Source: an uncultured Spirochaetota bacterium
Lineage (GTDB): Bacteria; Spirochaetota; UBA4802; UBA5550
Assembly: GCA_937872225.1 (NCBI GenBank)
Contig: CALMRZ010000033.1
Span: 16,315-80,314 of the forward strand
Direction: 5' to 3'
Length of the DNA stretch: 64,000 nucleotides
Part shown: piece by piece, positions 8,222 to 56,333 of the stretch
Layout: each line of letters opens with the position of its first letter
Numbering within the stretch: the first letter of the stretch is position 1
Position numbers and translations under genes: made by a program
Notes under the pieces: generated by a model
What the model was told of the DNA's origin: nothing
The model's input: only the letters and a program-made list of their open reading frames with translations
The model's database searches: none

Positions 8222-8250
8222 CGCACCCCTCCCGTTCCCGGTCGATTCTG

Positions 8251-38338: not shown

Positions 38339-38551
38339 AAAGATTCCCCCATCGGTTGATATCCCAGGATAAAAATGCAAAAACACAATATCATCCTTAT
38401 AATAAAATTGCAATACATTTAGGGATGGAAATGAAAATAATAGTTATTAATCCGACATGGCGCCGTATTTCGGACCTGATTAGAAGAAGGAATTTATTAA
38501 TAATTAATGTTCCCGTACGTATATCCTTATTAAAAGGGAGGCGCGATAAAT

Positions 38552-38986
38552 ATGGAAACAACCCTAAACATAGATGTCGCAACAATGAAAAAAATCACGC
38601 TGGCGGCAGAGGCAAAAAAGATATCCCGAGCCGAATTAATTATCATGCTCTTGAATCAAGTTATGGATAACACTAATAAACCCTACTTTCTGGGGAAGAT
38701 GGTCAGATACCAGGAAAGAAGGGTTCCCGATGAATGGCACAGGTTTCATATAGAGTTGCGGCCTGATGAGTATGAATTTTTTCTGGACCTCAGGAAGCTT
38801 CTTAAAATGTCTGTCTCTTTAATACTGGCATATGCAGTTGAAAAATACTTAAAATGTATATTAAGAAAAACTACCGATAACTATCTCCATAAAAATTATT
38901 TAATGATACGAGAATCGATTGATGGCATCAAATGTTGGAAACTCTATTGGGGCTACCCGCCCAGCATCAAAAAACATCTTACTTGA
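38552..38986 (+). CDS. Hypothetical protein with a possible ribbon-helix-helix (CopG/Arc-like) N-terminus, in an AT-rich stretch immediately upstream of the GH127-GH2 genes.
   Basis: Strong RBS AAGGGAGG; N-terminal ..KKITLAAEAKKISRAELIIMLL..; AT-rich codon usage unlike the flanking genes. Confidence 0.5.
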   Translation: METTLNIDVATMKKITLAAEAKKISRAELIIMLLNQVMDNTNKPYFLGKMVRYQERRVPDEWHRFHIELRPDEYEFFLDLRKLLKMSVSLILAYAVEKYLKCILRKTTDNYLHKNYLMIRESIDGIKCWKLYWGYPPSIKKHLT

Positions 38987-39042
38987 TTAAAATACTTGAA
39001 GATTTTCCCTCAATCTGTTTTCCTTATGCAAGGACATATCCT

Positions 39043-41034
39043 ATGCCCACGATCTACTCGTCCCATCAGTATTTCAACGAAATACCCCTCGCAGAGGTAA
39101 AGCTCGGCGGCGGATTCTGGGGCGGCCGGTGCGCCTTGAATCGGGATCATGCCATATTCTACCAGTGGGACCAGCTGGAGCAGACGGGCCGCGTCGACAA
39201 TTTCCGCATCGTCGGAGGGACAAAACCGGGGTTCCGCAGAGGCTTTTTCTACAACGATTCCGATGTGCACAAGTGGGCCGAAGCCGCAGCCGCAATCCTT
39301 GCGGCGGGCCCCCATCGACGTCTCGAGAAAATTCTTGAGGAGTATATCACTGTCATTCGCCGGGCCCAGATGGATGACGGCTATATCTTCACCTACAACC
39401 AGTTCCATTTCCCGGGTGATCGCTGGAAAAACCTTCAGATCGAACACGAGCTCTACACCCATGGTCATCTGATCGAAGCCGGCATTACTCTGATGGAAGC
39501 CACGGGCAGGAATGATCTCCTGGACATATCCCGAAAGGCGGCGGACCTGGTGGTGCGTGATTTTGCCGGCGCCGGACCGACCATGACGCCGGGCCATGAG
39601 GAGATCGAAATAGCCCTGATACGCCTGTACCGCGCCACGGGCGAGGGCGCATATCTCGAAACAGCGCGGCATTTCCTGGAACAAAGGGGAAGGATTCGCT
39701 TCTTCGCCCTCCGGCTGGCGGGACAGTTCTTCAGCCAGTCCCGCCGGTCAGGCGCTATCGCCAAAATGGAAAAAGAATCAACCGGCGCGGCATCTGCATC
39801 GGCCGGCTTCGACTTCACGGAAAACCTCACGGTCACGGAGCCGCCTTTCCTGAAGCTTCGTGCCAATATATCCTTCCTGTCCGGAAAATTCTTCCAGCAG
39901 CACCGGCCCATCAGGAAACAACGATCGCCCGAAGGACACGCGGTCCGCTGGGGATACCTGGCAACGGCAATGACGATGCTCTACCGGGAAACCGGCGACC
40001 GGTCGATATATGATACCCTCACGGAAGCGTGGGACCGCATGGTCCGGCGCCGCATGTATGTCACCGGCGGAATCGGGTCCCTTCCCGTCATAGAAGGATT
40101 CGGGAGAGACTACGAACTGGACAACCGCTATGCCTACTGCGAAACCTGCGCGGCCCTGGCGAGCATTTTCTGGAGCAGAGAGATGCTCCTGGCCACCGGC
40201 GAGGCCCGGTACGCGGACCTCATCGAATGGCAGATGTACAACGCCGCCGCGGCCGGCATAGCCCTTGACGGCAGGTCATACCTTTACCGCAACCCCCTGG
40301 AGTCGGACGGACAGACGCGCAGGCCCTGGTACGCTACCGCCTGCTGCCCGAGCAACATATCCCGCGCCTGGGCCTCCCTGGGGAAATATATCCATTCCAC
40401 CAGTGGCAACGATGTTTGGATACATCAGTATATCGGCAGCACCGCAGAAATCGGGTCAGGAGGGATGAACATCACCATCAATTCCGGTCTACCCTGGAAC
40501 GGTCATGCTTCAATCCAGCTGCATGTTGATAATCCGATTGAATTTAGCCTCAATCTTCGCGTTCCTTCCTGGTCAGGAAACCCATCAATTTCAATAAACG
40601 GCGATACGGCCGAATTTGATACTCCCGCGCAGCCAAATATTGACACGGCGTCAGGATATTCCCCTTACCGGTCATGGTTTCTTCGCCTGCGCAGAAGATG
40701 GGACAGAGAAACCAAAATCGAAATTGATTTACCGATGGACATTGTGTTCCACCGGTCCCATGATCGGGTCAAGAACAACCGGGGGAAGGTAGCCCTGTCA
40801 CGGGGGCCCCTGGTCTACTGCCTTGAAAGCATCGATAATCCCATGGCAAATATTCCGAAAGCAGTCCTTGATACAGGCAGGGAGGTCACCGCGCGGCATT
40901 CCGCTTCGCATTTCGACGGCGCCTGGCTCCTCCAGGGGGCTGATCCTGCCGGTACCACTCTCACGTTCATTCCCTATTTCTGCTGGGCCAACCGTGGTCA
41001 GTCCGCAATGCAGGTGTGGGTGAAGGAGAAATAA
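39043..41034 (+). CDS. Glycoside hydrolase family 127 (beta-L-arabinofuranosidase, HypBA1/DUF1680-like). Start reassigned from 38932 to ATG 39043.
   Basis: GFWGGR..., VDNFRIVGG, YNDSDVHKWAEA and EHELYTHGHLIEA hallmarks; candidate catalytic Cys segment in CETCA. Confidence 0.8.
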   Translation: MPTIYSSHQYFNEIPLAEVKLGGGFWGGRCALNRDHAIFYQWDQLEQTGRVDNFRIVGGTKPGFRRGFFYNDSDVHKWAEAAAAILAAGPHRRLEKILEEYITVIRRAQMDDGYIFTYNQFHFPGDRWKNLQIEHELYTHGHLIEAGITLMEATGRNDLLDISRKAADLVVRDFAGAGPTMTPGHEEIEIALIRLYRATGEGAYLETARHFLEQRGRIRFFALRLAGQFFSQSRRSGAIAKMEKESTGAASASAGFDFTENLTVTEPPFLKLRANISFLSGKFFQQHRPIRKQRSPEGHAVRWGYLATAMTMLYRETGDRSIYDTLTEAWDRMVRRRMYVTGGIGSLPVIEGFGRDYELDNRYAYCETCAALASIFWSREMLLATGEARYADLIEWQMYNAAAAGIALDGRSYLYRNPLESDGQTRRPWYATACCPSNISRAWASLGKYIHSTSGNDVWIHQYIGSTAEIGSGGMNITINSGLPWNGHASIQLHVDNPIEFSLNLRVPSWSGNPSISINGDTAEFDTPAQPNIDTASGYSPYRSWFLRLRRRWDRETKIEIDLPMDIVFHRSHDRVKNNRGKVALSRGPLVYCLESIDNPMANIPKAVLDTGREVTARHSASHFDGAWLLQGADPAGTTLTFIPYFCWANRGQSAMQVWVKEK

Positions 41035-41037
41035 CAA

Positions 41038-42768
41038 ATGTCAGATAAACAGTATCCCCGGCCGGACATGGAGCGTGATCGATGGCTCTCCCTTGACGGA
41101 ACATGGGAATTCGAATTCGACTGTCGGGGTAATGGAAAAGACCGCCACCGCGGGCCCCTGGCAGGGACCATCAGGGTCCCCTTCTGCATAGAAAGCGAAG
41201 CGAGTGGTATCGGCATACAAGACCCGCCGCCGGTTTCATGGTACGCAAAAAACTTGAGTCGAAAAGACTTGCCCCGGGGGAAGCGCTTTTTCCTCAACTT
41301 CGGTGCGGTGGACTACGAAGCAACGGTCTGGCTGAACGGCGCGCTCCTCGGCTCCCACCGCGGCGGCTACACCCCCTTCACCTTCGAAATAACTGAGCGC
41401 CTCGCCGATAACAATCGGCTGGTCGTCAGGGCTAACGATCCCCGGACCCGCGGCACCCTCCGGGGCAAGCAGTACCTGTGGAAAAAGTTGAGCCCCATCT
41501 TCTACACGCCGGCAAGCGGCATCTGGCAGCCCGTTCATATCCATGCCACCGGGAGTTCCAGCATTGTAAAGATGGTACTATCCTCCACTTTGGACGCGAT
41601 CATGGTTTCATGGGACATCGACGGAGGGGACCGCATGGTCATAGAGATTGCCGGGTCAAAGGGCTCCATCGCCGCCATCAAGGAAATCCGAAAACCGCAA
41701 ATGAGCGGAAGCGCCACCCTTGTCATCAAGCATCCACACCATTGGTCCGTGGATGATCCTTACCTCTATACCGTAACCGTATCGCTCCACGATGCGGAAG
41801 GAATGAGCGACCGCGTTGTATCCCGGACGGGACTGCGCACTATCGAAGCAAAAGATGGAAGCATCGTCCTGAACGGCGACCCGATCAGCCTCAAGATGAT
41901 TCTCGTCCAGGGCTACTTCCCGGGCGGTCATTACACCCCGGTTGATGGATTGGAAGGATACGAACGGGACATTCTGCTCATCAAGGCCATGGGCTTCAAC
42001 GGCATCAGGATGCACCAGAAGATCGAGGACCCGCGCTTTCTTCACCTGTGCGACCGCCACGGCCTCCTGGTCTGGACGGAGATGCCCTCGCCTTTCCTCT
42101 TCAGCCCGGTGAAGGAGCGGCAGTATGAGGATGAACTGTGGGACGTACTGGACCGGGACAGCGGCCATGCCTCCAACATGGCTGTCGTGCTCTTCAACGA
42201 GACCTGGGGGATCTTCGATATCCTCTGGAGAAGTAAAAGAAAAGCATATATCCGCAGACTTTACGAGCGTGTCAAGGACCGCTATCCCCATCTCCTCGTG
42301 GTGGACAATTCCGGGTATGACCATGTCATGACGGATATCGCCGACATCCATCACTACCTGGCGGACGAGGCAAAGATCAGAAAGCTCTATGCGGGTCTGG
42401 GCGACGCGCGCAGGATGACGATGCGCTTCTTCAAGATCCCGCGGGCCCTCGCCTATCTTATCCTTACCCACAAATTTTCCCGCATGCCCTACCTGTCCGG
42501 CGGCGCCTACCGCGGTTTCGAGCCTTTCATGGTGAGCGAGTTCGGCGGGGCAGGTTTTTACAAAACCGATAAGACCATGCTGGAGAGCTTTACCGATAAT
42601 GTCCGCATCATGAAGGAGTACCCGCGGCTGGCCGGCTACTGCCTGACCCAGGCCTATGACGTGGAGGGAGAACAGAACGGCCTTCTCACCTTCCGGCGCG
42701 AGCCGAAGTACGGCATTGAAGAGATCGCGGAAGTCAACGCGCTATTACAAGCCAATCTTCCGAAATGA
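41038..42768 (+). CDS. Glycoside hydrolase family 2-like enzyme (sugar-binding jelly-roll, Ig-like, TIM barrel).
   Basis: FGAVDYEATVWLNGALLGSHRGGYTPFTFEIT (GH2 N-terminal domain), NGIRMHQ and LLVWTEMP (TIM-barrel segments). Confidence 0.7.
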   Translation: MSDKQYPRPDMERDRWLSLDGTWEFEFDCRGNGKDRHRGPLAGTIRVPFCIESEASGIGIQDPPPVSWYAKNLSRKDLPRGKRFFLNFGAVDYEATVWLNGALLGSHRGGYTPFTFEITERLADNNRLVVRANDPRTRGTLRGKQYLWKKLSPIFYTPASGIWQPVHIHATGSSSIVKMVLSSTLDAIMVSWDIDGGDRMVIEIAGSKGSIAAIKEIRKPQMSGSATLVIKHPHHWSVDDPYLYTVTVSLHDAEGMSDRVVSRTGLRTIEAKDGSIVLNGDPISLKMILVQGYFPGGHYTPVDGLEGYERDILLIKAMGFNGIRMHQKIEDPRFLHLCDRHGLLVWTEMPSPFLFSPVKERQYEDELWDVLDRDSGHASNMAVVLFNETWGIFDILWRSKRKAYIRRLYERVKDRYPHLLVVDNSGYDHVMTDIADIHHYLADEAKIRKLYAGLGDARRMTMRFFKIPRALAYLILTHKFSRMPYLSGGAYRGFEPFMVSEFGGAGFYKTDKTMLESFTDNVRIMKEYPRLAGYCLTQAYDVEGEQNGLLTFRREPKYGIEEIAEVNALLQANLPK

Positions 42769-42789: not shown

Positions 42790-43560
42790 TTATTCCGTGC
42801 CGCCGCTATATCCGTATTTCGAGGAAGCTTCGATCCCCGCGTCCCGGACGACCCGGGCAAAGTCATCGATGCGCGGCATCATCAATCCGGATGGGCCAGA
42901 TATGCCGATCGAATACAGGGCTTCGCCGCGATAATTAATGACGGGCGCCGCAATGCACACGATGCCGCTTTTGTATTCCTCGCGGTCATAGGCGATCCGC
43001 TCCTTCCGTGCCATGGCAAGCTCATCACGCAAGGCTTCTTTCGAGAGGATGGACCGCTCGGTGTATGGCCGCAAATCGGCGCTATCGAGGAGCGTCGACA
43101 GTATCCCGCTGTCTCGAAAGGACAGGATGGCCTTGCCGAGGGCCGTGGCAACCGCCGGTTCCCGCGTTCCCACCGCGATGTTCACGCTGATGCTTTCCCG
43201 GGGCTGCTCCACGGCGAGAAACACCACGTCGGCGCCTTCGAGAACGGCCAAGTGGGTGTTCTGCTTAGTGGCGGCGCAGATGCGCGATATGATCGGCCTG
43301 ATGATGCTTTCAATTTTTCCCTGGTCATTGAAGGAGCCGGCAAGCTCCATAAGCCTGAAGCCGAGCGAGTATTTCTTGGTGTCCGTGTCCTGCTGGACAA
43401 AATGGTTTTGCAAAAGGGTCGATATCAGCCTGAACACCGAAGAGCGATCGATGGTAAAATGTCCCGCTATTTCGTTAAGGGATAGGGGCTGATCGGACGA
43501 GCCAAGGATTGTTAAAATTTTCAGGCCCCGTTCAAGGGATTGTATTGTGTTTTTTGTCAT
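42790..43560 (-). CDS. IclR-family transcriptional regulator.
   Basis: N-terminal HTH LERGLKILTILGSSDQPLSLNEIAGHFTIDRSSVFRLISTL plus a C-terminal IclR effector domain. Confidence 0.9.
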   Translation of the reverse strand: MTKNTIQSLERGLKILTILGSSDQPLSLNEIAGHFTIDRSSVFRLISTLLQNHFVQQDTDTKKYSLGFRLMELAGSFNDQGKIESIIRPIISRICAATKQNTHLAVLEGADVVFLAVEQPRESISVNIAVGTREPAVATALGKAILSFRDSGILSTLLDSADLRPYTERSILSKEALRDELAMARKERIAYDREEYKSGIVCIAAPVINYRGEALYSIGISGPSGLMMPRIDDFARVVRDAGIEASSKYGYSGGTE

Positions 43561-43729
43561 ATTGCTTCTTAATAATTATGGTTATATATGAAATAGCACC
43601 ATTTATTATCTATAAGAATCCATATAGACAATAATATTAAAATTTAAAAAAAAATCAATTAATTTATTGCTTATTATGCAATATTATTGTATATTATGCA
43701 TAAAATATTAAACAACGGGGGAGTTTCTT
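43561..43729. promoter_or_regulatory. AT-rich divergent promoter region between the IclR gene and the catabolic operon, with a near-repeated ttattatgcaatatt / atattatgcataaaatatt motif (candidate IclR boxes).
   Basis: Read directly from the sequence; GGGGGAG RBS before ATG 43730. Confidence 0.4.
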
Positions 43730-44140
43730 ATGCCCTTTATCGATTTTTCCGCGTTCAATGGATCAAAAATTGATAAGCCCTTTGAACGGGAGATAAAATT
43801 TCTCCTGTCTCCCGACATCGATCCGTCTGTTAAGGACTTCACGTTCCTTCTCTCCACCCTGGCGCCCCACGGCGGCTGTACCGATTATCATACCCACGCC
43901 GACGCGGGGGAGCTCATGATCTTTATGTCAGGCAAAGGAAAGGCCTGGCTTGACGGCGTCGAGCACGATCTGAAACCGGGCGCCGCCATGTACGCTCCTC
44001 CCGGGACCATTCATAAGACCATGAATACCGGTTCGGAACCGCTGCAGATAGCATGCGTGTTCGTCCCGGCCATCTCAACTGATTACATCAGGCAGAACAT
44101 TGAAGCCGCTCAGACAAAGAAGGGAGCCGCCGATGAATAA
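43730..44140 (+). CDS. Cupin-domain protein.
   Basis: G.TDYHTH...GELMIFMSGKG...H two-motif cupin pattern. Confidence 0.7.
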   Translation: MPFIDFSAFNGSKIDKPFEREIKFLLSPDIDPSVKDFTFLLSTLAPHGGCTDYHTHADAGELMIFMSGKGKAWLDGVEHDLKPGAAMYAPPGTIHKTMNTGSEPLQIACVFVPAISTDYIRQNIEAAQTKKGAADE

Positions 44141-46283
44141 CCGCGCCAGGCAGACATTGGATAATACATGCCGGGAATCTCTCTCGGCCAAAAGCGTCAT
44201 AATAGCCGAGCATCTGATGAAAGATATCCTCCGGCAGTATGCCATACCGGTTCCCGCCGGCCGACTCTGCCTCACTCCGGCGGATGCTGTCCGCTTCGGC
44301 AGAACCGCCCGGCCTCCCTACGCCATGAAACTGGTCTCCGACAGGGTGCTTCACAAGACAGAGCTGGGCGGTGTCCGCCTCGGCATCGACGGCGCGGCCC
44401 GCCTGAAATCGGAATTCACCTCCATGGATTCTTCCCTGAAGAAGAAAAAGATCCAGGGATACGCAGGGATACTCGTGGAAGAGCAGTGCCCGCCCGGTGT
44501 TGAAATCATCGTCGGCCTGCAGCACGACGAGGTATTCGGCCCGGTCATGATGATCGGACTGGGCGGCATCTATACGGATATATTCAAAGATGTATCCTTT
44601 CGCCCCCTCCCCGTTTCAAGGAAAGACATCACCGCCATGATCGATGATCTGAAGGCCCGTCCGCTCCTGGCCGGCTTCAGGGGATCCGAGCGGATCGACA
44701 TGAAGGCCCTCGCCGGGACAATCGGCGCTATCGGCCGTTTCGGCGCTGACGCCGCACCCTGGTATGAATCGGTCGACTTCAATCCGGTCATCGCGCGGCC
44801 CGACGGCTGCGTCGTCGTTGACGCGAAAATGGTTCTCCGCCGGGGCCGTGAGGGTCGCAGCGCCGCCGGGGGAACGATCAGGACCGGCCACCTGGATAAT
44901 TTTTTCAGGCCGAAGAGCGTCGCCGTCCTGGGAGCTTCGGCGACGCCGGGAAAGATCGGCAACATCATCCTCGACTCGCTGGCGTCAGCCCCGGGCGGGA
45001 GGACCATATTCCCCGTCAATCCCAACGCCCGGGAGATCCTCGGCATGACCTGCTATCCGTCCCTTGACGCGCTCCCCGCGGTTCCGGACCTGGTCATTGT
45101 CATCGTCGACCTGGCCATGCTTCCCGATATCATCCGCGCCATGGCCGCCCTTGGCTGCCATAACGCCATCGTAATTTCCGGCGGCGGCCGGGAGCTGGGC
45201 GGAGGCCGCGCGGAGCTCGAAGAGGAGATCCGCTCCCTGGCCCGGGAGCACGACGTGAGGATCATCGGGCCCAACTGCATCGGATGCTTCGACGGCGCGA
45301 GCCGCTTTGATTCCTTCTTCTATCCGAAGGAGCGCCTGGAACGCCCGCCGCGGGGCACCGTGAGCTTCATTACCCAGAGCGGAACCTGGGGCTGCGCCTT
45401 CCTCGAAAAGGCCTGCCGCACCGGCATTGCCAAGATGGTGAGCTACGGGAACCGCGCCGATGTCGACGAGGGAGACCTTATTTCCTTCCTCGCCGATGAT
45501 CCCGACACGTCGGTGATCGGCAGCTACATCGAGGGGCTCTCCGACGGAAAAAAATTCCTCGCCGCGGTCAGGGAATCCGTCGCGCGGGACAAGCCGGTGG
45601 TTGTATTCAAGACCGGGAGGAACCCGGTTTCGGCGCGGGCGTCAGTATCCCACACCGGCGCCTACGGCGGCACCTATCACGTCTACAGGGGCGCCCTCGG
45701 GGCGGCGGGGGCGGTCCTGACCGACAGCTTCGATGAATGCTACGCCGCGTGCGAGGCCCTGTCTCTTCAGCCAGCCGCCAGCGGCAACCGCGCCGCCCTT
45801 GTGTCGAACGGGGCCGGTCCGATGGTGAACGCCATCGACCTCTTCCCCGACAACGGCATCGAGCTGGTGAAGCTCTCGCGGTCATCGGTGGAAAGGATGC
45901 GCAGCCGTTTCAGCTTCTTTTACCTGGTGGAAAACCCCGTTGACGTCACCGGCTCGGCCACCGCTTCCGACTACCGGCTCGTCATGGAAACCCTGGCCGG
46001 CGACGGCAATGTCGACATCATCATGCCATTTTTCGTTTTTCAGAATTCTCCCCTTGACGAGAGTATCGTGGAGGTCCTTGCAGACCTGAGCTCCGGCCGG
46101 GGGAAGCCGATCGTCTGCTGTGCCTCCGGCGGGCCCTACACGGACCTCATGCGCGGCCGCCTCAACCGGGCGGGCGTCCCCCTGTATGATTCCGTGATCG
46201 AGTGGGTGGCGGCGGCCCGGGGCCTGGTGCGCTGGGGGGCCGCAAGAAAATCCCGAAGGAACGCTCAACCATGGAAAAACTGA
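44133..46283 (+). CDS. ADP-forming acyl-CoA synthetase (NDP-forming; ATP-grasp domain followed by CoA-binding/ligase-CoA domains fused in one chain). The start at ATG 44133 overlaps the cupin stop; alternatives are 44100 and 44217.
   Basis: ATP-grasp N-terminus (LRQYAIPVPAG...YAMKLVSDRVLHKTELGGV), then SVAVLGAS..GKIG (CoA-binding) and a succinyl-CoA-synthetase-like ligase domain. Confidence 0.75.
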   Translation: MNNRARQTLDNTCRESLSAKSVIIAEHLMKDILRQYAIPVPAGRLCLTPADAVRFGRTARPPYAMKLVSDRVLHKTELGGVRLGIDGAARLKSEFTSMDSSLKKKKIQGYAGILVEEQCPPGVEIIVGLQHDEVFGPVMMIGLGGIYTDIFKDVSFRPLPVSRKDITAMIDDLKARPLLAGFRGSERIDMKALAGTIGAIGRFGADAAPWYESVDFNPVIARPDGCVVVDAKMVLRRGREGRSAAGGTIRTGHLDNFFRPKSVAVLGASATPGKIGNIILDSLASAPGGRTIFPVNPNAREILGMTCYPSLDALPAVPDLVIVIVDLAMLPDIIRAMAALGCHNAIVISGGGRELGGGRAELEEEIRSLAREHDVRIIGPNCIGCFDGASRFDSFFYPKERLERPPRGTVSFITQSGTWGCAFLEKACRTGIAKMVSYGNRADVDEGDLISFLADDPDTSVIGSYIEGLSDGKKFLAAVRESVARDKPVVVFKTGRNPVSARASVSHTGAYGGTYHVYRGALGAAGAVLTDSFDECYAACEALSLQPAASGNRAALVSNGAGPMVNAIDLFPDNGIELVKLSRSSVERMRSRFSFFYLVENPVDVTGSATASDYRLVMETLAGDGNVDIIMPFFVFQNSPLDESIVEVLADLSSGRGKPIVCCASGGPYTDLMRGRLNRAGVPLYDSVIEWVAAARGLVRWGAARKSRRNAQPWKN

Positions 46284-47107
46284 TCATAACGGCCGCCCTG
46301 ACCGGCGGCATACACGGCAAGGAGGCCAACCCGGCCCTTCCGGAGCAGCCTGACGAGATAATCAAAGACGCCGTGGCCTGCTATAACGCCGGCGCCGCCA
46401 TCGTGCACCTGCATGCCCGCGACCGCCAGGGCAAAGGCGTGGGCGACCCGGCTATATTCTCGGAGATAAACAGCGGCATCCGGGCCCGGTGCCCCATTGT
46501 CATACAGAACACGACCGGCGGGCCCGGCATCCCCATCAAGGAGCGCCTCTCCGGCCTGGACGCGGCCCCTGAAATGGGATCGCTCAACATGGGATCCATC
46601 GTGTTCTTCACCGGAAAGGAAAAGGCAGAACTGCTGTTCATGAACCACAGGTCCGAGATCGAGGCGTTCGCCGCGGAGATGCTTAAACGCGGCATCAAGC
46701 CGGAGATGGAAGTGTACAACCCGTCAATGTTCGGAGAAGTCGAAAACCTCATCGCGAAAAACCTGCTGGCAAAGCCGTATTACATCAACTGCGTCATGGG
46801 CGTCGAAGGCATGGGCGGATACAAGGGTACACCGAAGAACCTGATTACCATGCTCGAACACCTGCCGGAAGGGTCGGTGTTCAACGTCACCGGCATCGGC
46901 CGGTGGCAGATGGGAATGAACGTAATGGCCATTCTGACCGGCGGGCACGCGCGGGTCGGACTCGAGGATAACGTCTATTTCCGGAAGGGTGAGCCGGCGT
47001 CGGGCAACGCGCAGTTCGTCGAAAGGCTTGTGAAAATCTCAAGGGAGATAGGCCGCGATATCGCGACACCCGATGAAGCGCGGGCCATCCTCGGCATGCA
47101 GCGTTAA
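46271..47107 (+). CDS. BKACE-family enzyme (3-keto-5-aminohexanoate cleavage enzyme Kce-like, DUF849). The track start at 46202 is rejected.
   Basis: MEKLIITAALTGG...HLHARD start typical of DUF849/BKACE. Confidence 0.7.
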   Translation: MEKLIITAALTGGIHGKEANPALPEQPDEIIKDAVACYNAGAAIVHLHARDRQGKGVGDPAIFSEINSGIRARCPIVIQNTTGGPGIPIKERLSGLDAAPEMGSLNMGSIVFFTGKEKAELLFMNHRSEIEAFAAEMLKRGIKPEMEVYNPSMFGEVENLIAKNLLAKPYYINCVMGVEGMGGYKGTPKNLITMLEHLPEGSVFNVTGIGRWQMGMNVMAILTGGHARVGLEDNVYFRKGEPASGNAQFVERLVKISREIGRDIATPDEARAILGMQR

Positions 47108-47130
47108 TTTTTTTGTAAGGAAACGGAGCC

Positions 47131-47760
47131 ATGAACATCGTAATCGTAAGCGAAATTAGCGCCGTGGCGCAAAACCCCGCCATCGTGGCGGCCCTGGAGG
47201 GGCGGGGCCACAGGATAATCAACGCCGCCATGACATCAGCGGACCAGAAGCCGGAGCTCACCTATGTCAACACCGGCTTCCTGGCCGCCCTGCTCCTCAA
47301 CGCGGGCCGGGCCGACCTCGTCGTGGGAGGCTGCGGCACCGGCGAGGGCTTCCTGATATCGGCTTCCCAGTATCCGGGCGTATTCTGCGGCCTCATTGCG
47401 AACGGCCCTGACGCCTGGCTCTTCGGCCAGATCAACGGGGGCAACTGCGTATCGCTCCCCCTCCTGTACGGATACGGGTGGGCCGGGGACGTGAATCTCC
47501 GGTTTATCTTCGACCGGCTCTTCAGCGTTGAATTCGGTGCCGGGTACCCGGCGCACCGGAGCGAATCCCAGAAAAAAAGCAGGGCCCTGCTGGCAGCCGT
47601 ATCGAAGACGGCCCACAGGCCCTTCCCGGAGATCGTAGCCGGAATCGACGAAGCGGTCATCCGGCCGGTGCTGGAGTTTCCCGGCGTCCTGAATACCATC
47701 GGCCTTGAGACCCTGGCCGATGCCGCCCTCAGGGACGCCATTGGCTCACGGCTGAAATAA
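47131..47760 (+). CDS. RpiB/LacA/LacB-family sugar-phosphate isomerase-like protein.
   Basis: VVGGCGTGEG glycine loop and overall size. Confidence 0.55.
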   Translation: MNIVIVSEISAVAQNPAIVAALEGRGHRIINAAMTSADQKPELTYVNTGFLAALLLNAGRADLVVGGCGTGEGFLISASQYPGVFCGLIANGPDAWLFGQINGGNCVSLPLLYGYGWAGDVNLRFIFDRLFSVEFGAGYPAHRSESQKKSRALLAAVSKTAHRPFPEIVAGIDEAVIRPVLEFPGVLNTIGLETLADAALRDAIGSRLK

Positions 47761-47769
47761 GGAGGATCC

Positions 47770-49641
47770 ATGGACATATCCGCACGCATTGAACGGGCCC
47801 GCGCCCTCGCCCGTTACGGGACGATAGACACGGCGGTGAAGGCCGGAGCCTTGCGACAGTTCCAGGACATCAGCGTTTCCGAGGCGATCGTCCTCGGCCT
47901 GCACCGCCAGGGCGTCACCCGGTACTGCGCCATATTCGGCCACGGGAGCACCGATATCGCCGAGGTCCTCCGCGTGTACGAAGCGGAGGGCGTTGTGCGC
48001 ACCTTCAACTTCCGCCATGAAACGGCCGCTTCCCACGCGGCCACGGCGCTGAAGCTCCGCACCGGCGAAACCGCCGCGGTCATCACCTCCATCGGACCGG
48101 GTGCCCTCCACGCCTTCGCTGGCTCCCTCTGCGCGGCCTCCAACGGCGCCGGGGTGTACCACATCTACGGCGACGAGACGACCCACGGCGAGGGCTTCAA
48201 CATGCAGCAGGTTCCCAGGGAGGATCAGGGCCTTTTCCTCAGGCTCTGCGGGGTCATGGGCGACGCCTACTCCCTCTTCGAGCCCTGGAGCGTGGCCGCC
48301 GCCCTTCGCAGGGGCGCCGCCGCGACCGGTCACTACGGGTTCGGCCGTCCCTTTTTTCTCCTCGCTCCTATGAACGTCCAGCCAGTCATCATGAAGAACT
48401 TCAATATCCTCGAGCTTCCAGAGGCCCCGGTGCCGCAGCGGATGGCCTGCGCCGACGAAGACGTTTTCCGGAGCGCCTCGGAAGCGGCTGAACAGGCGCG
48501 GCGCGTAACCATCAAGATCGGCCAGGGCGCCAGGGGCTGCGGCGACGAAATAACGGAGCTCGCGAGGCTCCTCGACGCGGCCATCGTGGCCGGTCCCAAC
48601 GCCAGCGGCGTCGTCCCCTACTCAGAGCCCCGCTACATGACGGTGGGCGGCTCCAAGGGGTCCCTGTCGGGGAATTACGCGATGAACGAGGCCGACCTCG
48701 CGGTCATCGTCGGCGCCCGCGCCGTGTGCCAGTGGGACTCGTCGGGCACCGCGTGGAAAAACGCGCGATCCGTAATCAACTTCAACACCGAGCCGCTCCA
48801 CGCCGGGCACTATAACAGGTCGGTGGGCATTGTCGGTGACGCCAAAACGAACCTGCGGCTCTGGATCGAGCACCTGAAGGGCCGCGGCCTTGCGCCGCGG
48901 GACGGCTCATCCCAATGGGCCAGGGAGCTTTTTTCAAAACGCGCCGAGTGGGAGCGTTTCAAGAGGGCCCGCTATGAATGCCCGCCCCTGTACGACGGGG
49001 CATGGAAAAAAGAGATACTCACCCAGCCGGTCGCCATCAAAACCGTGTGCGAACACGCCGACGCGATGGGCGCCCTCAAGCTCTTCGACGCCGGCGACGT
49101 GCAGGCCAACGGGTTCCAGATCGTCGAGGACGAGCGCGAGGGCATGACCATGACCGACACCGGCTCCTCCTACATGGGGTTCGCGTCTTCCGCGGTCTTC
49201 CTCTCGGCCCTCTGCGACGTCTATCCGGTCGCCTTCTGCGGCGACGGCAGCTTCATGATGAACCCTCAGATCCTGATCGACGCTTCCCAGCACGGCGCCC
49301 GCGGCTGCATCGTGATATTCGACAACCGCCGGATGGCGGCCATCACCGGCCTCCAGCTGGCCCAGTACGGGAACGAATACCGCACCAGCGACGCCGTGGC
49401 CGTCGACTATGCGGCCATGGCGAACGCGGTCAGCGGCGTGCGGGGGATATACGGCGGCGACACCGTCGCCGCTCTCCGCGCGGCCCTCGGCGAAGCCGCC
49501 TCGCACCGCGGCCTCTCGGTGGTCCACGTGCCGGTGTACGCGGGGCCCCACGAGCTCTCGGGCATGGGCGTCTTCGGCGACTGGAACGTCGGGAACTGGT
49601 GCGAACGCGTGCAGGCCGAGCATCACCGCATCGGCCTGTAA
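47770..49641 (+). CDS. Thiamine-pyrophosphate-dependent enzyme (acetolactate synthase/IolD/sulfoacetaldehyde acetyltransferase superfamily).
   Basis: Three-domain layout with a TPP-binding GDG motif region (AFCGDGSFMMNPQ...N). Confidence 0.7.
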   Translation: MDISARIERARALARYGTIDTAVKAGALRQFQDISVSEAIVLGLHRQGVTRYCAIFGHGSTDIAEVLRVYEAEGVVRTFNFRHETAASHAATALKLRTGETAAVITSIGPGALHAFAGSLCAASNGAGVYHIYGDETTHGEGFNMQQVPREDQGLFLRLCGVMGDAYSLFEPWSVAAALRRGAAATGHYGFGRPFFLLAPMNVQPVIMKNFNILELPEAPVPQRMACADEDVFRSASEAAEQARRVTIKIGQGARGCGDEITELARLLDAAIVAGPNASGVVPYSEPRYMTVGGSKGSLSGNYAMNEADLAVIVGARAVCQWDSSGTAWKNARSVINFNTEPLHAGHYNRSVGIVGDAKTNLRLWIEHLKGRGLAPRDGSSQWARELFSKRAEWERFKRARYECPPLYDGAWKKEILTQPVAIKTVCEHADAMGALKLFDAGDVQANGFQIVEDEREGMTMTDTGSSYMGFASSAVFLSALCDVYPVAFCGDGSFMMNPQILIDASQHGARGCIVIFDNRRMAAITGLQLAQYGNEYRTSDAVAVDYAAMANAVSGVRGIYGGDTVAALRAALGEAASHRGLSVVHVPVYAGPHELSGMGVFGDWNVGNWCERVQAEHHRIGL

Positions 49642-49672
49642 GGGGAAAGACAACACGACAGGAGTCACGAAC

Positions 49673-51166
49673 ATGAATAAAATACGGGTCGGATTCGCCG
49701 GGGCGGGAAGGATCGCCGATGTACATTTCCCCGGTTATGTGAAAAATCGCGACGCGGTCCTCCACGCGGTTTGCGACACCGATGAAGGGACGGCCCTTCG
49801 CAGGAAAAAGGAATGGGGCGTGGAAAAGCACTTCACCCGCTACGAGGAGATGCTGTCTGACCCTGCCATCGACGCCGTCGAAATCCTTACACCGACAATG
49901 CTCCACGAGGAGATGGCGGTCCAGGCCCTTCGGGCCGGCAAGCATGTTGCGGTCCAGAAACCGATGGCCAACTCCCTGGAGAGCGCCGACCGGATCATAA
50001 GGGCCGCAGAAACTGCGGGCAAAGTGCTCAAGGTATCAGATAACTACGTGTTCTACCCGCCCATCGTTGCGGCTAAGAGGATGATCGCGGACGGATGGAT
50101 CGGAACGCCCACAAACCTGCGCATCAAGCTCATCAGCGGAGCCGGGGGATGGACCGTGCCGCCGTCATCGTGGGAATGGCGGGTACGCGAGGGCCAGGAA
50201 GGGCGCGGGCTCCAGACCTTCGACCATGGCCATCACCTCTGGGCCGCGGCGTGGTTCCTCATGGGCACTGCCGAGCGCGTCACGGCCTGGATCGACTCGC
50301 TGGACGGCGTTGTGGACAGTCCGGCTGTGATCATGTGGAAATACCGGGATACGGCGGCCTACGGCATGTGCGAATACTGCCATGAACCGGACCTTGCGAT
50401 CCCATCGCGCTATTACGCCAATGACGAATGGATAGAAATTACCGGTACGAAGGGGATCATCGTGGTCAATCGCTGCACCGGGAATATAAAGAAATGCCCC
50501 GCCATCAGCTATTTCGACGGAAAATGGAAAGATATATCGGTGCGCGACGACGACTGGGCCGAAGGATTCAAGGGCTCGACGCGCAATTTCATCGGGGCGA
50601 TACTCGGCAGGGAAGCGCCGAGCCTTTCGGCCAGGGAAGGCCGGGAGATACTGAAATTCTCCCTGGCAGTCCAGAAATCGAACCGCCTGCGCCGGGAGGT
50701 ATACATCGAAGAGCTTGATGCCCGGTTCCCCGGCCTGTATGCCCGCCGCATGATCAGCAAGGACATTAGATCCAGGATCTGCAGGAAGGGGATCCTGGAA
50801 CGCCTGGGCTTCGGAAGCGGCGACTCTCGATACGCTGTCCAGGCTGGGGGCCTCGTTCTGGGTCTTCCGGAAAGGTACGATCCCGGAGCGGTCGAAGGCT
50901 GGGAAACGGCCTTCGGGATCCGGCTTCTTGCTGATGGCGGCCAGCCCGAACGGCGCTACTCCCTCATCATAAAGGACGGAAAAGCCGTCGTGACCGAAGG
51001 GGCGATCCCGGCTAACCCGGTATGCGTCATGGCCGCGCCGGCGGGGACATGGGGCGCCATTCTTTTAAAAAAGAAAAAAGTGCAGATGGCCTTCATACAA
51101 GGGAAGCTTAAAATCGAGGGGAAGGCCGAGGAAGCCCTCAAGCTGCTTCCTTCGTTCAAGTTTTAG
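49673..51166 (+). CDS. Gfo/Idh/MocA-family oxidoreductase with a C-terminal SCP2-like domain. The track start at 49409 is rejected in favour of ATG 49673.
   Basis: IRVGFAGAGRIA Rossmann start; C-terminal ...QGKLKIEGKAEEALKL SCP2 hallmark. Confidence 0.75.
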   Translation: MNKIRVGFAGAGRIADVHFPGYVKNRDAVLHAVCDTDEGTALRRKKEWGVEKHFTRYEEMLSDPAIDAVEILTPTMLHEEMAVQALRAGKHVAVQKPMANSLESADRIIRAAETAGKVLKVSDNYVFYPPIVAAKRMIADGWIGTPTNLRIKLISGAGGWTVPPSSWEWRVREGQEGRGLQTFDHGHHLWAAAWFLMGTAERVTAWIDSLDGVVDSPAVIMWKYRDTAAYGMCEYCHEPDLAIPSRYYANDEWIEITGTKGIIVVNRCTGNIKKCPAISYFDGKWKDISVRDDDWAEGFKGSTRNFIGAILGREAPSLSAREGREILKFSLAVQKSNRLRREVYIEELDARFPGLYARRMISKDIRSRICRKGILERLGFGSGDSRYAVQAGGLVLGLPERYDPGAVEGWETAFGIRLLADGGQPERRYSLIIKDGKAVVTEGAIPANPVCVMAAPAGTWGAILLKKKKVQMAFIQGKLKIEGKAEEALKLLPSFKF

Positions 51167-51204: not shown

Positions 51205-51555
51205 TTACAGTCCCAATTTTTTCAGGAACTCTTCTTTCGAGACAGAATTTGATTCCGACGCCAGGTTCCCGCCGCTATAATACCGGACATAGGGAATGAG
51301 CCGGTTCTTCCACTTCGTTTCCTTGAAGGTCCTGAATTCATCAAAAAAATCAGTCGTATTGTAGATGAGCTCATAGAGGCCGGCGTCAATCTCCAGTGAA
51401 TAGAGCCACTTCTTCATGGCATCCCACTGGGGGCACCAGTCCTGTGACATCACCACCGCGACCTTACGCTCGGACGCGACCACATCGCTCGAGAACTCGC
51501 CGCATTCAATGGCGCTCATGGCCTGTTCACGCGTTATTATCCGTACCGGTGTCAT
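51205..51555 (-). CDS. Thioredoxin-fold protein with a monothiol WCPQW motif (YtxJ/DUF-like).
   Basis: VAVVMSQDWCPQWDAMKKWL. Confidence 0.4.
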   Translation of the reverse strand: MTPVRIITREQAMSAIECGEFSSDVVASERKVAVVMSQDWCPQWDAMKKWLYSLEIDAGLYELIYNTTDFFDEFRTFKETKWKNRLIPYVRYYSGGNLASESNSVSKEEFLKKLGL

Positions 51556-51589
51556 ATCATCACGCTCCGGGGAAGTGTCCCAGCTTCGT

Positions 51590-52327
51590 CTATTTCACGG
51601 CCCCGCCCATGGCGAAATAGATAATGACGCCGATAAGCTGTATGGGCGAGGATATGATGTCAGCAAGGACCGGCGCGATATAACCGACCTTGATCAGGCC
51701 GTTGACCGCCATGTTCCGCTCCTTCCACCTGACATCCATCATCGAATAGGGCAGCTCCATGTGAAACCCCTGGTCAACGCCCGCCTTCCCGTTTTCCTTC
51801 AGCGTCCAGATTTGATGCTGGGCGTAGAACTGCTTCACGTTGGAAAAGGTCAGCTTGACAAAAAACAGGGGAAAATCCTTCCGCCCGACATCAACATTAA
51901 AATTTTTTTTGATGACCTGAGCCGGGACAGCAACCTCTTTTACATTATACTGCTCGAAGATATCCCTGTAACCCTCGCTGCAGCAGTAACGCTCCACCAG
52001 GAGGAAGGCTTTTTTCGTTCCAGCCATCCTGGCTGCCGATTCACTGATGATGATTTTTTCATTATATTCATGGGGGATGTAGATATCCAGATAGCGTCCC
52101 GCGCCGGCAAGAGGTCCTTCGAACTGGAGATGATAGTATGGCTTGTTTTTTATGAGGGTTCGTTCTTCCGCCGTGCCCTGATACGCCTTGTCCCTGGAAT
52201 CGATTTTCTCGAATTCCCATATCTCACTGCCGCTGTCCCCCAGCTTTTCATGGTATGTGATCGTGGCGCACCGCGTGAATCCCGCGCACGCGAGTAGAAG
52301 AATCATCAACGATAACATACGATTCAT
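51590..52327 (-). CDS. Hypothetical lipoprotein.
   Basis: Lipobox MNRMLSLMILLLACAG; no homology recognised. Confidence 0.45.
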   Translation of the reverse strand: MNRMLSLMILLLACAGFTRCATITYHEKLGDSGSEIWEFEKIDSRDKAYQGTAEERTLIKNKPYYHLQFEGPLAGAGRYLDIYIPHEYNEKIIISESAARMAGTKKAFLLVERYCCSEGYRDIFEQYNVKEVAVPAQVIKKNFNVDVGRKDFPLFFVKLTFSNVKQFYAQHQIWTLKENGKAGVDQGFHMELPYSMMDVRWKERNMAVNGLIKVGYIAPVLADIISSPIQLIGVIIYFAMGGAVK

Positions 52328-54947: not shown

Positions 54948-56333
54948 TTATCCGATGATTCTGAAAAGGAACTTCAGCAGCTTCACCTTCTTATTGTACG
55001 GCGGATAGCGGAGCTTCAGGTCGAAGGCGCTGGCCCGGGTGAGGATGCCCCGCTGGTGCGAGAAGGTCTCGAAGCCGGATTTCCCGTGATATCTCCCCAT
55101 ACCGCTGTCGCCGATCCCGCCGAAGGGGAGCTCCTGGCTCCCCACGTGCGACACCGTGTCATTGATGCAGCCGCCGCCGGAAGAGGTCCCGGCAAGGACC
55201 TTCTTCTGCTTTTTCACGCTCTTTGAAAAATAATAGAGGGCCAGGGGGCGCGGCAGCCTGTTCACCTGGGCAATGGCGTCGTCAAGCTTGGCGAAGGTCA
55301 TGATCGGGAGCAGCGGCCCGAAGATCTCCTCGTTCATGATCGGGTCCTTCAGGGTCGCGTTGTCCACCAGGGTCGGCGCGATGAAGCGGTTCTTCCGGTC
55401 GCTGTCGCCCCCCAGGATCACCTTCGCGCCTTCAAGGAGCCCCATGATCCGGTCAAAGTGCTTTTCGTTGATGATGCGGGCGTAGTCCCTGCTCGACCGG
55501 GGGTCATCGCCGTAAAACTCCCCAATGGTTTTTTTAAGCTCATCGATGAAGGCAGCCTTGATTTTTTTGTGGACCAGCAGGTAGTCCGGCGCAAGGCAGG
55601 TCTGGCCGGCGTTGAAGAACTTTCCCCAGCAGAGCCGGCGCGCCGCCGTGGGAAGATGGGCGTCCTCGTCGACGATCGCCGGGCTCTTGCCGCCCAGCTC
55701 CAGGGTCACCGGGGTCAGGTTCTCCGCGGCGGCGCGCATGACGATCCGTCCCACCGCGGTGCCGCCGGTGAAGAAAATGTAATCGAACTTCTCCTTCAGC
55801 AGGGCGCCGGTTTCCTCCACGCCGCCTTCAATCACGGTAATGTAGTCCTCGTCAAAGGTTTCCCGGATCATCTTCGCCACCAGGCGCGAGGTCGCCGGCG
55901 CGAGCTCCGAGGGCTTGATGACGGCGCAGTTGCCGGCGGCAATGGCCGCCACCAGCGGGGCGATGACAAGCTGGAATGGATAATTCCAGGGACCGATGAT
56001 GAGGGCCACGCCGTACGGGTCATAGTGGACCGCGCTTGTCGAATAAAAATGGATAATGGGGGTTGCCACCTCGCGCTTCCGGGCCCAGGACCGGAGGTGC
56101 CAGTGCACGTGGCGTATCTCCGTATAAAGGATGCCTATCTCGCTGGCGTACGATTCGAAGGCGGGCTTTTTCAGGTCCCTGTACAGGGCCTCCATGATTG
56201 CGTCCTCGTTCTTCCGGATCGCCTTTTTCAGCATCCGCAGCTGCTTCTTCCGGAACGAAATTTTTCTCGTTTCGCCGGTATTGAAGAATTTTCTGAGTTT
56301 CTGCACCCTGGCCGCAATTGCTTTCTGACTCAT
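54948..56333 (-). CDS. NAD(P)-dependent aldehyde dehydrogenase (class-3-like ALDH).
   Basis: ELGGKSP, the catalytic-Cys region FNAGQTCLAPDYLLV and EEIFGPL motifs. Confidence 0.85.
   Translation of the reverse strand: MSQKAIAARVQKLRKFFNTGETRKISFRKKQLRMLKKAIRKNEDAIMEALYRDLKKPAFESYASEIGILYTEIRHVHWHLRSWARKREVATPIIHFYSTSAVHYDPYGVALIIGPWNYPFQLVIAPLVAAIAAGNCAVIKPSELAPATSRLVAKMIRETFDEDYITVIEGGVEETGALLKEKFDYIFFTGGTAVGRIVMRAAAENLTPVTLELGGKSPAIVDEDAHLPTAARRLCWGKFFNAGQTCLAPDYLLVHKKIKAAFIDELKKTIGEFYGDDPRSSRDYARIINEKHFDRIMGLLEGAKVILGGDSDRKNRFIAPTLVDNATLKDPIMNEEIFGPLLPIMTFAKLDDAIAQVNRLPRPLALYYFSKSVKKQKKVLAGTSSGGGCINDTVSHVGSQELPFGGIGDSGMGRYHGKSGFETFSHQRGILTRASAFDLKLRYPPYNKKVKLLKFLFRIIG

Follow-up and report, generated by a model that had tools for sequence, protein, structure and literature searches.

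We analysed a 64,000-nt stretch of DNA (hereafter, the window) from contig CALMRZ010000033.1 of an uncultured Spirochaetota bacterium, focusing on an operon at positions 43730-51166 and the divergent gene for an IclR-family regulator in front of it. The operon encodes a cupin, an ADP-forming acyl-CoA synthetase (ACS), a member of the BKACE family, an isomerase related to DhuI, a thiamine diphosphate (ThDP) enzyme and a dehydrogenase of the Gfo/Idh/MocA family. It is probably an undescribed variant of sugar-acid catabolism, built from known enzyme families around the ThDP enzyme. The features of the locus are as follows.

42790-43560 (-): gene for the IclR-family regulator (Pfam HTH_IclR and IclR_C), divergent from the operon
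43561-43729: AT-rich divergent promoter region, the spacer between the IclR and cupin genes (169 nt, 20% GC)
43675-43693: predicted IclR operator (19-bp perfect palindrome), 36 nt ahead of the cupin ATG
43730-44140 (+): cupin gene, 136 aa (Cupin_2)
44133-46283 (+): ADP-forming ACS gene (ATP-grasp_5, CoA_binding_2 and Succ_CoA_lig)
46271-47107 (+): BKACE gene (PF05853, 310 bits)
47131-47760 (+): gene for a LacAB_rpiB-like isomerase with the RpiB/LacAB fold, DhuI family (Pfam and NF006753)
47770-49641 (+): gene for a three-domain ThDP enzyme (all three TPP domains of Pfam)
49673-51166 (+): Gfo/Idh/MocA dehydrogenase gene with a C-terminal SCP2 domain (GFO_IDH_MocA and SCP2, Pfam)

The operon and its gene junctions

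Start codons were set by the position of domain matches, by in-frame ATG codons with Shine-Dalgarno-like purine runs and by full-length homologues. The cupin and ACS genes overlap by 8 nt (ATGAATAA, with the ACS ATG at 44133 and the cupin stop TAA at 44138-44140), and the ACS and BKACE genes overlap by 13 nt (BKACE ATG at 46271, ACS stop TGA at 46281-46283). The remaining gaps are 23 nt (BKACE/isomerase), 9 nt (isomerase/ThDP) and 31 nt (ThDP/dehydrogenase), and a convergent open reading frame (ORF) on the minus strand ends 39 nt past the last gene. An initial annotation of this DNA had described seven plus-strand genes with ATGA-type overlaps at the cupin/ACS and ACS/BKACE junctions. The overlaps are real but have the lengths given above, and the plus-strand genes number six, or seven only if the divergent regulator is counted. 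The other structural claims of that annotation agree with our results: Pfam returned the same domains for all operon genes, HTH_IclR and IclR_C identify the divergent regulator, and the intergenic DNA is indeed AT-rich and bears repeats, among them the perfect palindrome.

Contigs from RNA libraries of two activated-sludge studies, at least 99% identical to the operon, span the cupin/ACS and the ThDP/dehydrogenase junctions and cover parts of the operon only. Because DNA at times contaminates such libraries, we regard this support for operon transcription as weak. One DNA contig (run X11) joins position 45197 to position 48864; the shorter side of this join is 20 nt, and we took it as an assembly artefact. 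The source DNA was matched in activated-sludge and anaerobic-digester metagenomes, and the genomes of relatives are labelled as spirochaete or Leptospirales metagenome-assembled genomes.

A predicted IclR operator and its regulon

The IclR protein stays below every NCBIfam equivalog cut-off, the best model being BhcR (160 bits vs a cut-off of 350). Orthologues with 52-81% identity occupy the same position in related loci. The palindrome at 43675-43693 reads TATGCAATATTATTGTATA. Its degenerate form, TATRCAATAnTATTGYATA, has one match in the window against 0.01 expected, and the perfect palindrome is present in a single copy in the 4.69-Mb genome. Additional half-sites lie in the same spacer at 43587, 43625 and 43665.

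A search of 1.25 Mb of related loci that allowed up to three mismatches gave 20 sites. Ten loci have the site in the spacer between regulator and operon, and in seven it stands directly upstream of a separately encoded Gfo/Idh/MocA gene; the last three of the 20 sites are just upstream of a ThDP or isomerase gene. This comparative evidence is good, and we predict the palindrome to be the IclR operator. The presence of this predicted operator before detached dehydrogenase genes is likewise good evidence that the SCP2-tailed dehydrogenase is part of the same regulon. The locus combines both features expected of an IclR-family regulon, namely a protein with HTH_IclR and IclR_C domains and a conserved palindrome, here a predicted site, in the divergent promoter.

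A genome-wide scan for the operator revealed no convincing further members of the regulon, as it returned nine matches with two or three mismatches vs six in a reversed-sequence control. The imperfect matches that we examined adjoin a recombinase gene, a VapE-like gene and a pair of genes for a short-chain dehydrogenase/reductase (SDR) and a hydrolase. In one related locus (L025, 12767-15040), a copy of the operator is located between a truncated Gfo/Idh/MocA gene and a gene with DUF362 and 4Fe-4S ferredoxin domains; the latter gene may belong to the regulon of that species as well.

Composition of related loci

Neighbourhoods of the 80 closest ThDP loci were collected by tblastn, followed by ORF calling, all-against-all BLAST clustering and Pfam and NCBIfam scans. 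Co-occurrence was counted in the 58 loci of at least 12 kb, with the following result.

DhuI-family isomerase, next to or near the ThDP gene: 40/58 loci
IclR: 32/58 loci
Gfo/Idh/MocA dehydrogenase: 25/58 loci
Transketolase: 16/58 loci
ACS: 14/58 loci
Cupin: 14/58 loci
Xanthine-dehydrogenase-family Mo enzyme: 12/58 loci
Zn alcohol dehydrogenase: 11/58 loci
BKACE: 11/58 loci

The isomerase-ThDP pair is the core of the cluster across these loci. The ACS and cupin genes are found together in all 14 loci that have them, ten of which also contain BKACE. No locus combines transketolase with ACS or BKACE; likewise, none combines the Gfo/Idh/MocA gene with the Mo enzyme, which is of the aldehyde-oxidoreductase type. 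On the tree of ThDP proteins, the cupin/ACS/BKACE loci make up one clade with two transketolase-type loci nested inside. Its sister is a Treponema-like clade with the ThDP enzyme, the isomerase, transketolase and an SCP2-tailed dehydrogenase. The simplest reading is that the conserved upper part (dehydrogenase, ThDP enzyme and isomerase) makes one intermediate, which is consumed by two alternative lower parts.

Regulators across the loci are of the IclR or LacI type, and the importers are those of sugars and carboxylates. By lineage, GPH symporters occur in the spirochaete BKACE clade, DASS carriers in Bacillota and ribose-type or CUT1 ABC transporters elsewhere, the ribose-type ones being found in Treponema-like loci. 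A Pfam census of 143 further neighbour ORFs detected nothing recurrent, with no GH88/GH105 glycoside hydrolases, polysaccharide lyases, kinases or aldolases among them; SDR genes are rare (2/143). In other loci, the ThDP gene recurs beside genes for IlvD/Edd dehydratases, a pairing that fits a preference of the ThDP enzyme for 2-keto-3-deoxy acids.

The same census bears on the idea that the BKACE and ThDP enzymes work as carbon-carbon ligases in the assembly of a specialised metabolite. BKACE reactions are reversible, ThDP enzymes of this superfamily often ligate, and a 2026 preprint reportedly describes a BKACE in a phosphonate biosynthetic cluster. The genes that recur here speak against an anabolic role, which we consider extremely improbable: the context is catabolic throughout (IclR/LacI regulators, sugar and carboxylate importers, glycosidases, transketolase and malonate-semialdehyde dehydrogenase), and genes for tailoring, export or resistance do not recur among the 143 other neighbours.

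In a pair of spirochaete loci (L040, 4166-5350; L041, 3082-4266), a URO-D-family protein is encoded between the ThDP gene and the gene for a CUT1 binding protein. Its fold is that of methylcobamide methyltransferases, a hint that the substrate of this lineage may be O-methylated. The cultured gut bacterium Anaerotruncus colihominis DSM 17241 (L062, 8233-20598) has IclR, a DhuI-like isomerase, the ThDP enzyme and a Zn dehydrogenase, together with the FAD and Mo/2Fe-2S subunits of an aldehyde-oxidoreductase-like enzyme, a DASS carrier and a split transketolase.

The isomerase, the ThDP enzyme and the dehydrogenase

No enzyme of the operon reaches the cut-off of a characterised NCBIfam equivalog. 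The sole model passed is PRK09273 (NF006753), which is named 'hypothetical protein' and to which the isomerase aligns with 178 bits vs a cut-off of 137, as expected of a DhuI-family member. The isomerase also matches Streptococcus agalactiae gbs1892 (PDB 4u8e; E 4.4e-42), a protein that has been named DhuI (10.1101/480228). The only characterised member of the family acts on an unphosphorylated keto-uronate (PMC12838403). The label 'sugar-phosphate-isomerase-like' given in the initial annotation therefore holds for the fold and is refined as to the family and its known, unphosphorylated substrate. Judging by these matches, the protein is predicted to be a DhuI-family aldose-ketose isomerase for unphosphorylated sugar acids. 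Its gene is the only one of its kind in the genome.

On the IolD model (TIGR04377), the ThDP enzyme reaches 108 bits where the cut-off is 715. When the genome was searched in six frames with this model, four other ThDP enzymes obtained 154-231 bits vs 90 for the operon gene; by this measure, it is not closer to IolD than are the acetolactate-synthase-like enzymes of the genome. Its relatives are encoded in at least 551 species, and ESM Atlas returned only generic names ('thiamine pyrophosphate-binding protein'). The top Foldseek matches of its AlphaFold model (pLDDT 77) comprise 2-hydroxyacyl-CoA lyases and synthases, oxalyl-CoA decarboxylase, pyruvate oxidase (POX), acetohydroxyacid synthase and cyclohexane-1,2-dione hydrolase, all at 17-21% identity and with E-values of 5e-32 to 3e-28. 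Since no branch of the superfamily is matched clearly better than the others, the reaction cannot be read from the fold. Sequence comparison places the enzyme in an uncharacterised subfamily of the POX/ALS/OXC superfamily.

The best neighbours in sequence and fold are 2-hydroxyacyl-CoA lyases/synthases and oxalyl-CoA decarboxylase (8vzd at E 2e-13; Foldseek ranks 1-19), and the same operon encodes a CoA ligase. This raises the question of a CoA-dependent alpha-oxidation, in which ACS would activate a 2-hydroxy sugar acid and the ThDP enzyme, as a 2-hydroxyacyl-CoA lyase, would release formyl-CoA and an aldose one carbon shorter, to be isomerised in turn. The margin of these neighbours over pyruvate oxidase, acetohydroxyacid synthase and cyclohexane-1,2-dione hydrolase is negligible, however, at identities that are equally low for all. 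Moreover, in about 44 loci, the majority, the ThDP-isomerase pair is found without any CoA ligase, so the conserved reaction cannot need one, and the ACS gene is tied to the cupin and BKACE genes rather than to the ThDP gene. We consider alpha-oxidation very unlikely.

The C-terminal tail of the ThDP enzyme (residues 599-623) is near-invariant in 11 homologues at 57-72% identity, with W605, N606, W610, C611, E617, H618 and H619 conserved. It is modelled with pLDDT <50 and may be a mobile active-site lid.

The dehydrogenase matches GFO_IDH_MocA with 93 bits and SCP2 with 36 bits. On the IolG model (TIGR04380) it scores 106 vs a cut-off of 355, with only the Rossmann half aligned. Full-length, SCP2-tailed versions of it (43-85% identity) are conserved in spirochaete loci of both the BKACE and the transketolase type.

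The cupin, the acyl-CoA synthetase and the BKACE

The cupin is a monocupin (Cupin_2, 54 bits) with both His/Glu cupin motifs in its sequence. Its PDB neighbours are weak and include quercetinase, cupin phosphoglucose isomerase and mannose-6-phosphate isomerase. Among its 33 PDB matches at E <=0.1, no entry is named KdgF, although the fold family is shared. We infer that the protein binds metal, and propose it as the ketol isomerase of the lower module.

ACS carries PF13549, PF13380 and PF13607 in one chain, the domain set of NDP-forming acyl-CoA synthetases, and matches PDB entries 9y43 and 4xyl. The best match, 9y43, is a 3-hydroxypropionate-CoA ligase [ADP-forming] (665 bits, residues 20-706); on the corresponding NCBIfam model HydPropCoALig (NF045492), ACS scores 808.6 bits vs a cut-off of 1300 and so stays outside that equivalog. 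We dropped a reading of the pair as a dimethylsulfoniopropionate-lyase system (ACS is weakly like DddX and the cupin weakly like DddK), the scores being 665 bits for 3-hydroxypropionate-CoA ligase vs 213.

BKACE scores 310.5 bits on PF05853 (gathering score 24.8). Its alignment with Kce (2y7d) shows retention of the HxH and ED motifs (HLH and LED), which we take to be the metal-binding and catalytic residues, as in Kce. It falls short of all characterised equivalogs: Kce (292 vs 382), the 3-oxoadipate type (207 vs 350) and the triacetate type (208 vs 430). Roles in carnitine degradation or lysine fermentation were dropped, as the partner genes are absent from the operon. A NetSyn preprint on BKACE contexts makes no mention of thiamine or acyl-CoA synthetase partners.

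The genome encodes a second BKACE (G000:C78:79184-87575; locus L086, ~3184-11600) that is 36% identical to that of the operon. This protein (475 aa) is fused to an N-terminal ChsH2-type OB-fold domain. Upstream of its gene are a thiolase-like gene and a gene for a protein that joins SCP2 and a ChsH2 zinc ribbon; downstream are genes for an enoyl-CoA hydratase, an AMP-forming acyl-CoA ligase and a CoA-transferase pair. It looks as though the DUF35 module had been divided, with one part joined to SCP2 and another to this second BKACE, and the products may form a thiolase-DUF35-BKACE complex.

Surroundings of the operon and genome inventory

Two further features of the window precede the regulator gene.

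36992-38413 (-): gene for a GPH-family (MFS_2) sugar/glycoside:cation symporter (TIGR00792 gph, 329 bits, above cut-off)
38932-42768 (+): genes for GH127 and GH2-like glycosidases, between the transporter and regulator genes

The symporter is a candidate importer for the pathway. Its orthologues (58-67% identity) are encoded directly beside ThDP or Gfo/Idh/MocA genes in two loci (L006 and L009) and one sulfatase gene away from them in another two (L017 and L019). In the window, the link between symporter and pathway is indirect, because the scan found no operator near the block of MFS_2, GH127 and GH2 genes. GH127/GH2 genes beside the symporter were seen only in the window and in L003; other symporter neighbours are GH1 (L010 and L068) and a sulfatase (L017 and L019). 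We view the GH127 and GH2-like glycosidases as possible feeder enzymes, with weak support.

No IolE-type dehydratase and no KduI/IolB was found in the genome, which is 97.7% complete. It holds three CoA-transferase pairs, at least seven thiolases and one MOFRL-family protein, none of them linked to the operon; we assume that the MOFRL family represents glycerate kinases.

Other parts of the window close to the operon were noted in passing. Just downstream (51205-52327), long ORFs overlap on both strands, 51416-52297 on the plus strand and 51205-51555 and 51590-52327 on the minus strand. They have no Pfam or NCBIfam match, L003 has a stretch 48% identical to them, and GC content falls to ~52%. 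An aldehyde dehydrogenase encoded at 54948-56333 (-) is closest to benzaldehyde dehydrogenase MdlD (438 bits vs a cut-off of 550); it is found with 89% identity and at the same distance in L003 only, and lies outside the conserved cluster. A 144-aa ORF at 38552-38986 (+), in AT-rich DNA and with no Pfam match, overlaps with its end the start of the GH127 gene at 38932.

The putative intermediate and the proposed pathway

What compound might the two lower parts share? We examined aldehyde dehydrogenases (ALDHs) encoded beside transketolase in four loci, from Planctomycetaceae (L065), Actinomycetes (L075), Hungatella (L047) and Spirochaetia (L068). The first three belong to the five transketolase loci that bear an ALDH, and the last is a 16-kb locus with split transketolase genes. 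All of them pass TIGR01722, the model of CoA-acylating (methyl)malonate-semialdehyde dehydrogenase of the IolA/MmsA type (490-572 bits vs 448.5). An ALDH of this type suggests a HOOC-CH2-CHO fragment, which has the same deoxy-acid end that BKACE needs. We infer that the intermediate ends in -CHOH-CH2-COO-. Should malonate semialdehyde be what transketolase leaves behind, the donor would be HOCH2-CO-CHOH-CH2-COO-, that is, 3,5-dihydroxy-4-oxopentanoate, the most economical candidate for the intermediate.

The IolA-type dehydrogenases of the transketolase loci can also be taken as a sign of cyclitol breakdown. In a kinase-free catabolism of inositol or deoxy-inositol, the Gfo/Idh/MocA enzyme would oxidise the ring, the ThDP enzyme would open a 1,2-dione as do IolD and cyclohexane-1,2-dione hydrolase, the DhuI-family isomerase would replace IolB, and the resulting 2-deoxy-5-keto acid would pass to transketolase or to BKACE and ACS. 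Several observations fit this picture. The best full-length PDB alignments of the Gfo/Idh/MocA enzyme include inositol dehydrogenases (3ezy, 4mkx and 4n54), its best NCBIfam model is IolG, and the ribose-type ABC transporters of Treponema-like loci are of the type used for inositols. The product of the dione hydrolase is an aldehyde-acid with a CH2 beside the carboxylate. In addition, KduI belongs to the same family as IolB and has the same function as DhuI (PMC12838403), which makes a DhuI-type analogue of IolB plausible. On the other hand, the low score of the ThDP enzyme on the IolD model (108 bits vs 715, with four other ThDP enzymes of the genome scoring higher) tells against a ring-opening role. 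The genome lacks an IolE-type dehydratase, and xylose-isomerase-like TIM barrels account for only 2/143 neighbours. The chemistry meets difficulties as well: transketolase acting on 2-deoxy-5-keto-gluconate would yield a C4 aldehyde, not malonate semialdehyde, and a 3-keto acid suitable for BKACE would need one more dehydrogenase. Nor does this route account for the pairing of the ThDP gene with IlvD/Edd dehydratases in other loci. Overall, we regard cyclitol catabolism as unlikely.

Our proposal, a tentative one to which we would give somewhat less than an even chance, is that an undescribed, phosphorylation-free route for keto-deoxy sugar acids is built on the DhuI-family isomerase and the ThDP enzyme. 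This route would be widespread, with at least 551 species that include members of Spirochaetota, Bacillota, Planctomycetota and Actinomycetota, and the ThDP enzyme would catalyse a reaction new to its superfamily, such as the decarboxylation of a 2,5-diketo-3-deoxy acid. The route would be finished by transketolase, in part with malonate-semialdehyde dehydrogenase, or, as here, by the cupin, BKACE and ACS. The substrate, possibly freed from a glycoside, would be imported by the GPH symporter. The upper enzymes would then oxidise and isomerise it and cut one C-C bond, giving a keto-deoxy acid that ends in -CHOH-CH2-COO-.

For the order of these upper steps we favour one scheme over others, although it is more likely wrong than right. 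By analogy with DhuI, the isomerase might produce a 2,5-diketo-3-deoxy acid, the ThDP enzyme might decarboxylate it, and the dehydrogenase might oxidise the resulting aldehyde or lactol. The last step would fall to the Gfo/Idh/MocA enzyme here, and the Mo enzyme may perform it in other lineages. Characterised dhuI genes are described as sharing their clusters with a reductase gene, dhuD or kduD (PMC12838403). In the loci studied here, a ThDP gene stands in place of that reductase gene and SDR genes are rare among the neighbours, which favours an order in which the isomerase acts before the ThDP enzyme.

In the lower module, a 2-deoxy-3-keto acid would arise as the cupin moves the keto group from C4 to C3. 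BKACE would put the C1-C2 unit of this acid onto acetyl-CoA, yielding acetoacetate and a short hydroxyacyl-CoA (glyceryl-CoA in the case of a pentonate). ACS, whose nearest relative acts on 3-hydroxypropionate, would turn the hydroxyacyl-CoA into free acid and ATP. Acetoacetate could be returned to acetyl-CoA by CoA-transferases and thiolases encoded elsewhere in the genome, and glycerate could go to the MOFRL-family protein. On this scheme, the cupin, BKACE and ADP-forming synthetase would together gain ATP by substrate-level phosphorylation.

A number of points weigh against the proposed pathway. All of its chemical steps are read from family membership and gene context, and the co-occurrence counts across the 58 loci treat related species as independent. 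The ALDH of the cluster is present in only 5/16 transketolase loci; those of the Planctomycete/Actinomycete type have no separate aldehyde-oxidising enzyme, a poor fit to a simple decarboxylase model. Four loci (two pairs of close relatives) have the cupin and ACS without BKACE, and hence ACS need not use the BKACE product. In the PDB search the cupin had no specific relative of known function, and the SCP2 tail has no assigned role. Neither GH88/GH105 enzymes nor a heparinase-II/III-type lyase were found in the genome, so the source of a 5-keto-4-deoxyuronate is not obvious. Finally, the transporters and feeders nearby (GPH symporter, GH127/GH2, GH1, sulfatase and ribose-type ABC) suggest uptake of neutral sugars or glycosides.

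With these points considered, we find it fairly likely that the locus represents a single catabolic regulon under IclR control, that it serves an imported compound derived from sugar, and that the proposed chemistry holds, the order of the upper steps aside. The initial annotation had suggested a catabolic route for a polyhydroxylated or keto-acid substrate outside known pathways. The absence of canonical inositol genes and the failure of every enzyme to reach a characterised equivalog lend support to this suggestion, which was to be given up should the gene set match a characterised operon. The open-access literature yielded no such match and no description of the gene set or of the ThDP subfamily.

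Significance

Members of the ThDP family are encoded by hundreds of species of sludge, sediment, ocean and animal-gut origin; the family has no known reaction, and its members are routinely mislabelled as IolD or acetolactate synthase. The operon provides this family with a defined regulon, a predicted operator and partner enzymes, and narrows its chemistry to a deoxy-keto sugar acid. If our proposal is true, BKACE would have a second natural role in sugar-acid breakdown, anaerobes would swap the kinase/aldolase ending for an ATP-gaining thioester ending, and annotation would be corrected across many genomes. The question is testable, as the sister cluster has cultured carriers: Faecalicatena faecalis, Mediterraneibacter agrestimuris and Anaerotruncus colihominis DSM 17241, the last being a practical organism for tests of ThDP-family function. 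We see moderate interest in the single locus and higher interest in the ThDP family overall.

Comparison with known pathways

Among known enzymes, the closest solved BKACE is Kce of lysine fermentation (PDB 2y7d, 197 bits); like the operon enzyme, it has conserved HxH and ED motifs and belongs to the TIM-barrel fold family. The operon enzyme differs in staying below the Kce equivalog cut-off (292 vs 382) and in its context, as lysine-fermentation genes (aminomutases and 3-aminobutyryl-CoA enzymes) are not nearby. The counterpart of ACS is the ADP-forming 3-hydroxypropionate-CoA ligase (9y43; NF045492), which has a role in carbon fixation. The two have the same fused domain order and match over their full length; both are NDP-forming acyl-CoA synthetases by family, and their substrates are probably short hydroxy acids. 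ACS nevertheless scores 809 vs a cut-off of 1300, is part of a bacterial catabolic operon and is proposed to work in the ATP-forming direction.

The clusters of unsaturated-uronate metabolism, DhuI-DhuD and KduI-KduD (PMC12838403), are related to the operon through its DhuI-family isomerase, and their classical regulator KdgR is also an IclR-family protein. Here, however, the isomerase is accompanied by a ThDP enzyme and no SDR-type reductase gene, and the genome has no GH88/GH105 or KduI.

The canonical myo-inositol pathway (IolG, IolE, IolD, IolB, IolC, IolJ and IolA) resembles the operon in its Gfo/Idh/MocA dehydrogenase, in a ThDP enzyme of the same superfamily and in an aldehyde-to-ketol isomerase for an unphosphorylated deoxy sugar acid, and an IolA-type malonate-semialdehyde dehydrogenase is found in sister loci. 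The differences are substantial. The operon isomerase has an RpiB-like fold instead of that of KduI/IolB, the ThDP enzyme stays below the IolD cut-off (108 vs 715 bits), the genome has neither IolE nor IolB, and the lower part consists of BKACE/ACS or transketolase. Kinase and aldolase genes are absent from the operon and do not recur in related loci; IolC and IolJ were not searched genome-wide.

A further parallel is offered by the oxidative 2-deoxyribonate pathway of Pseudomonas simiae and Paraburkholderia, for which a reaction of 2-deoxy-3-keto-ribonate with acetyl-CoA to acetoacetate and glyceryl-CoA has been proposed, the latter leading to glycerate (Price et al. 2019, PMC6365646). Like our model of the operon, it relies on a BKACE proposed to split a 2-deoxy-3-keto sugar acid with acetyl-CoA, the two BKACEs being likened by proposed reaction. 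The deoxyribonate pathway recycles acetoacetate via a CoA-transferase or synthetase and thiolase, a step for which candidate genes lie elsewhere in the genome studied here. A dedicated transporter and regulator are encoded alongside, as are the IclR gene and the candidate symporter gene here. The operon lacks the SDR deoxyribonate dehydrogenase, the lactonase and the Mo deoxyribose dehydrogenase, its only dehydrogenase being the Gfo/Idh/MocA enzyme, and adds the ThDP enzyme, the DhuI-family isomerase, the cupin and the SCP2 tail of the dehydrogenase. It also encodes its own ADP-forming synthetase for the thioester step, a step left unassigned in the deoxyribonate pathway (PMC6365646).

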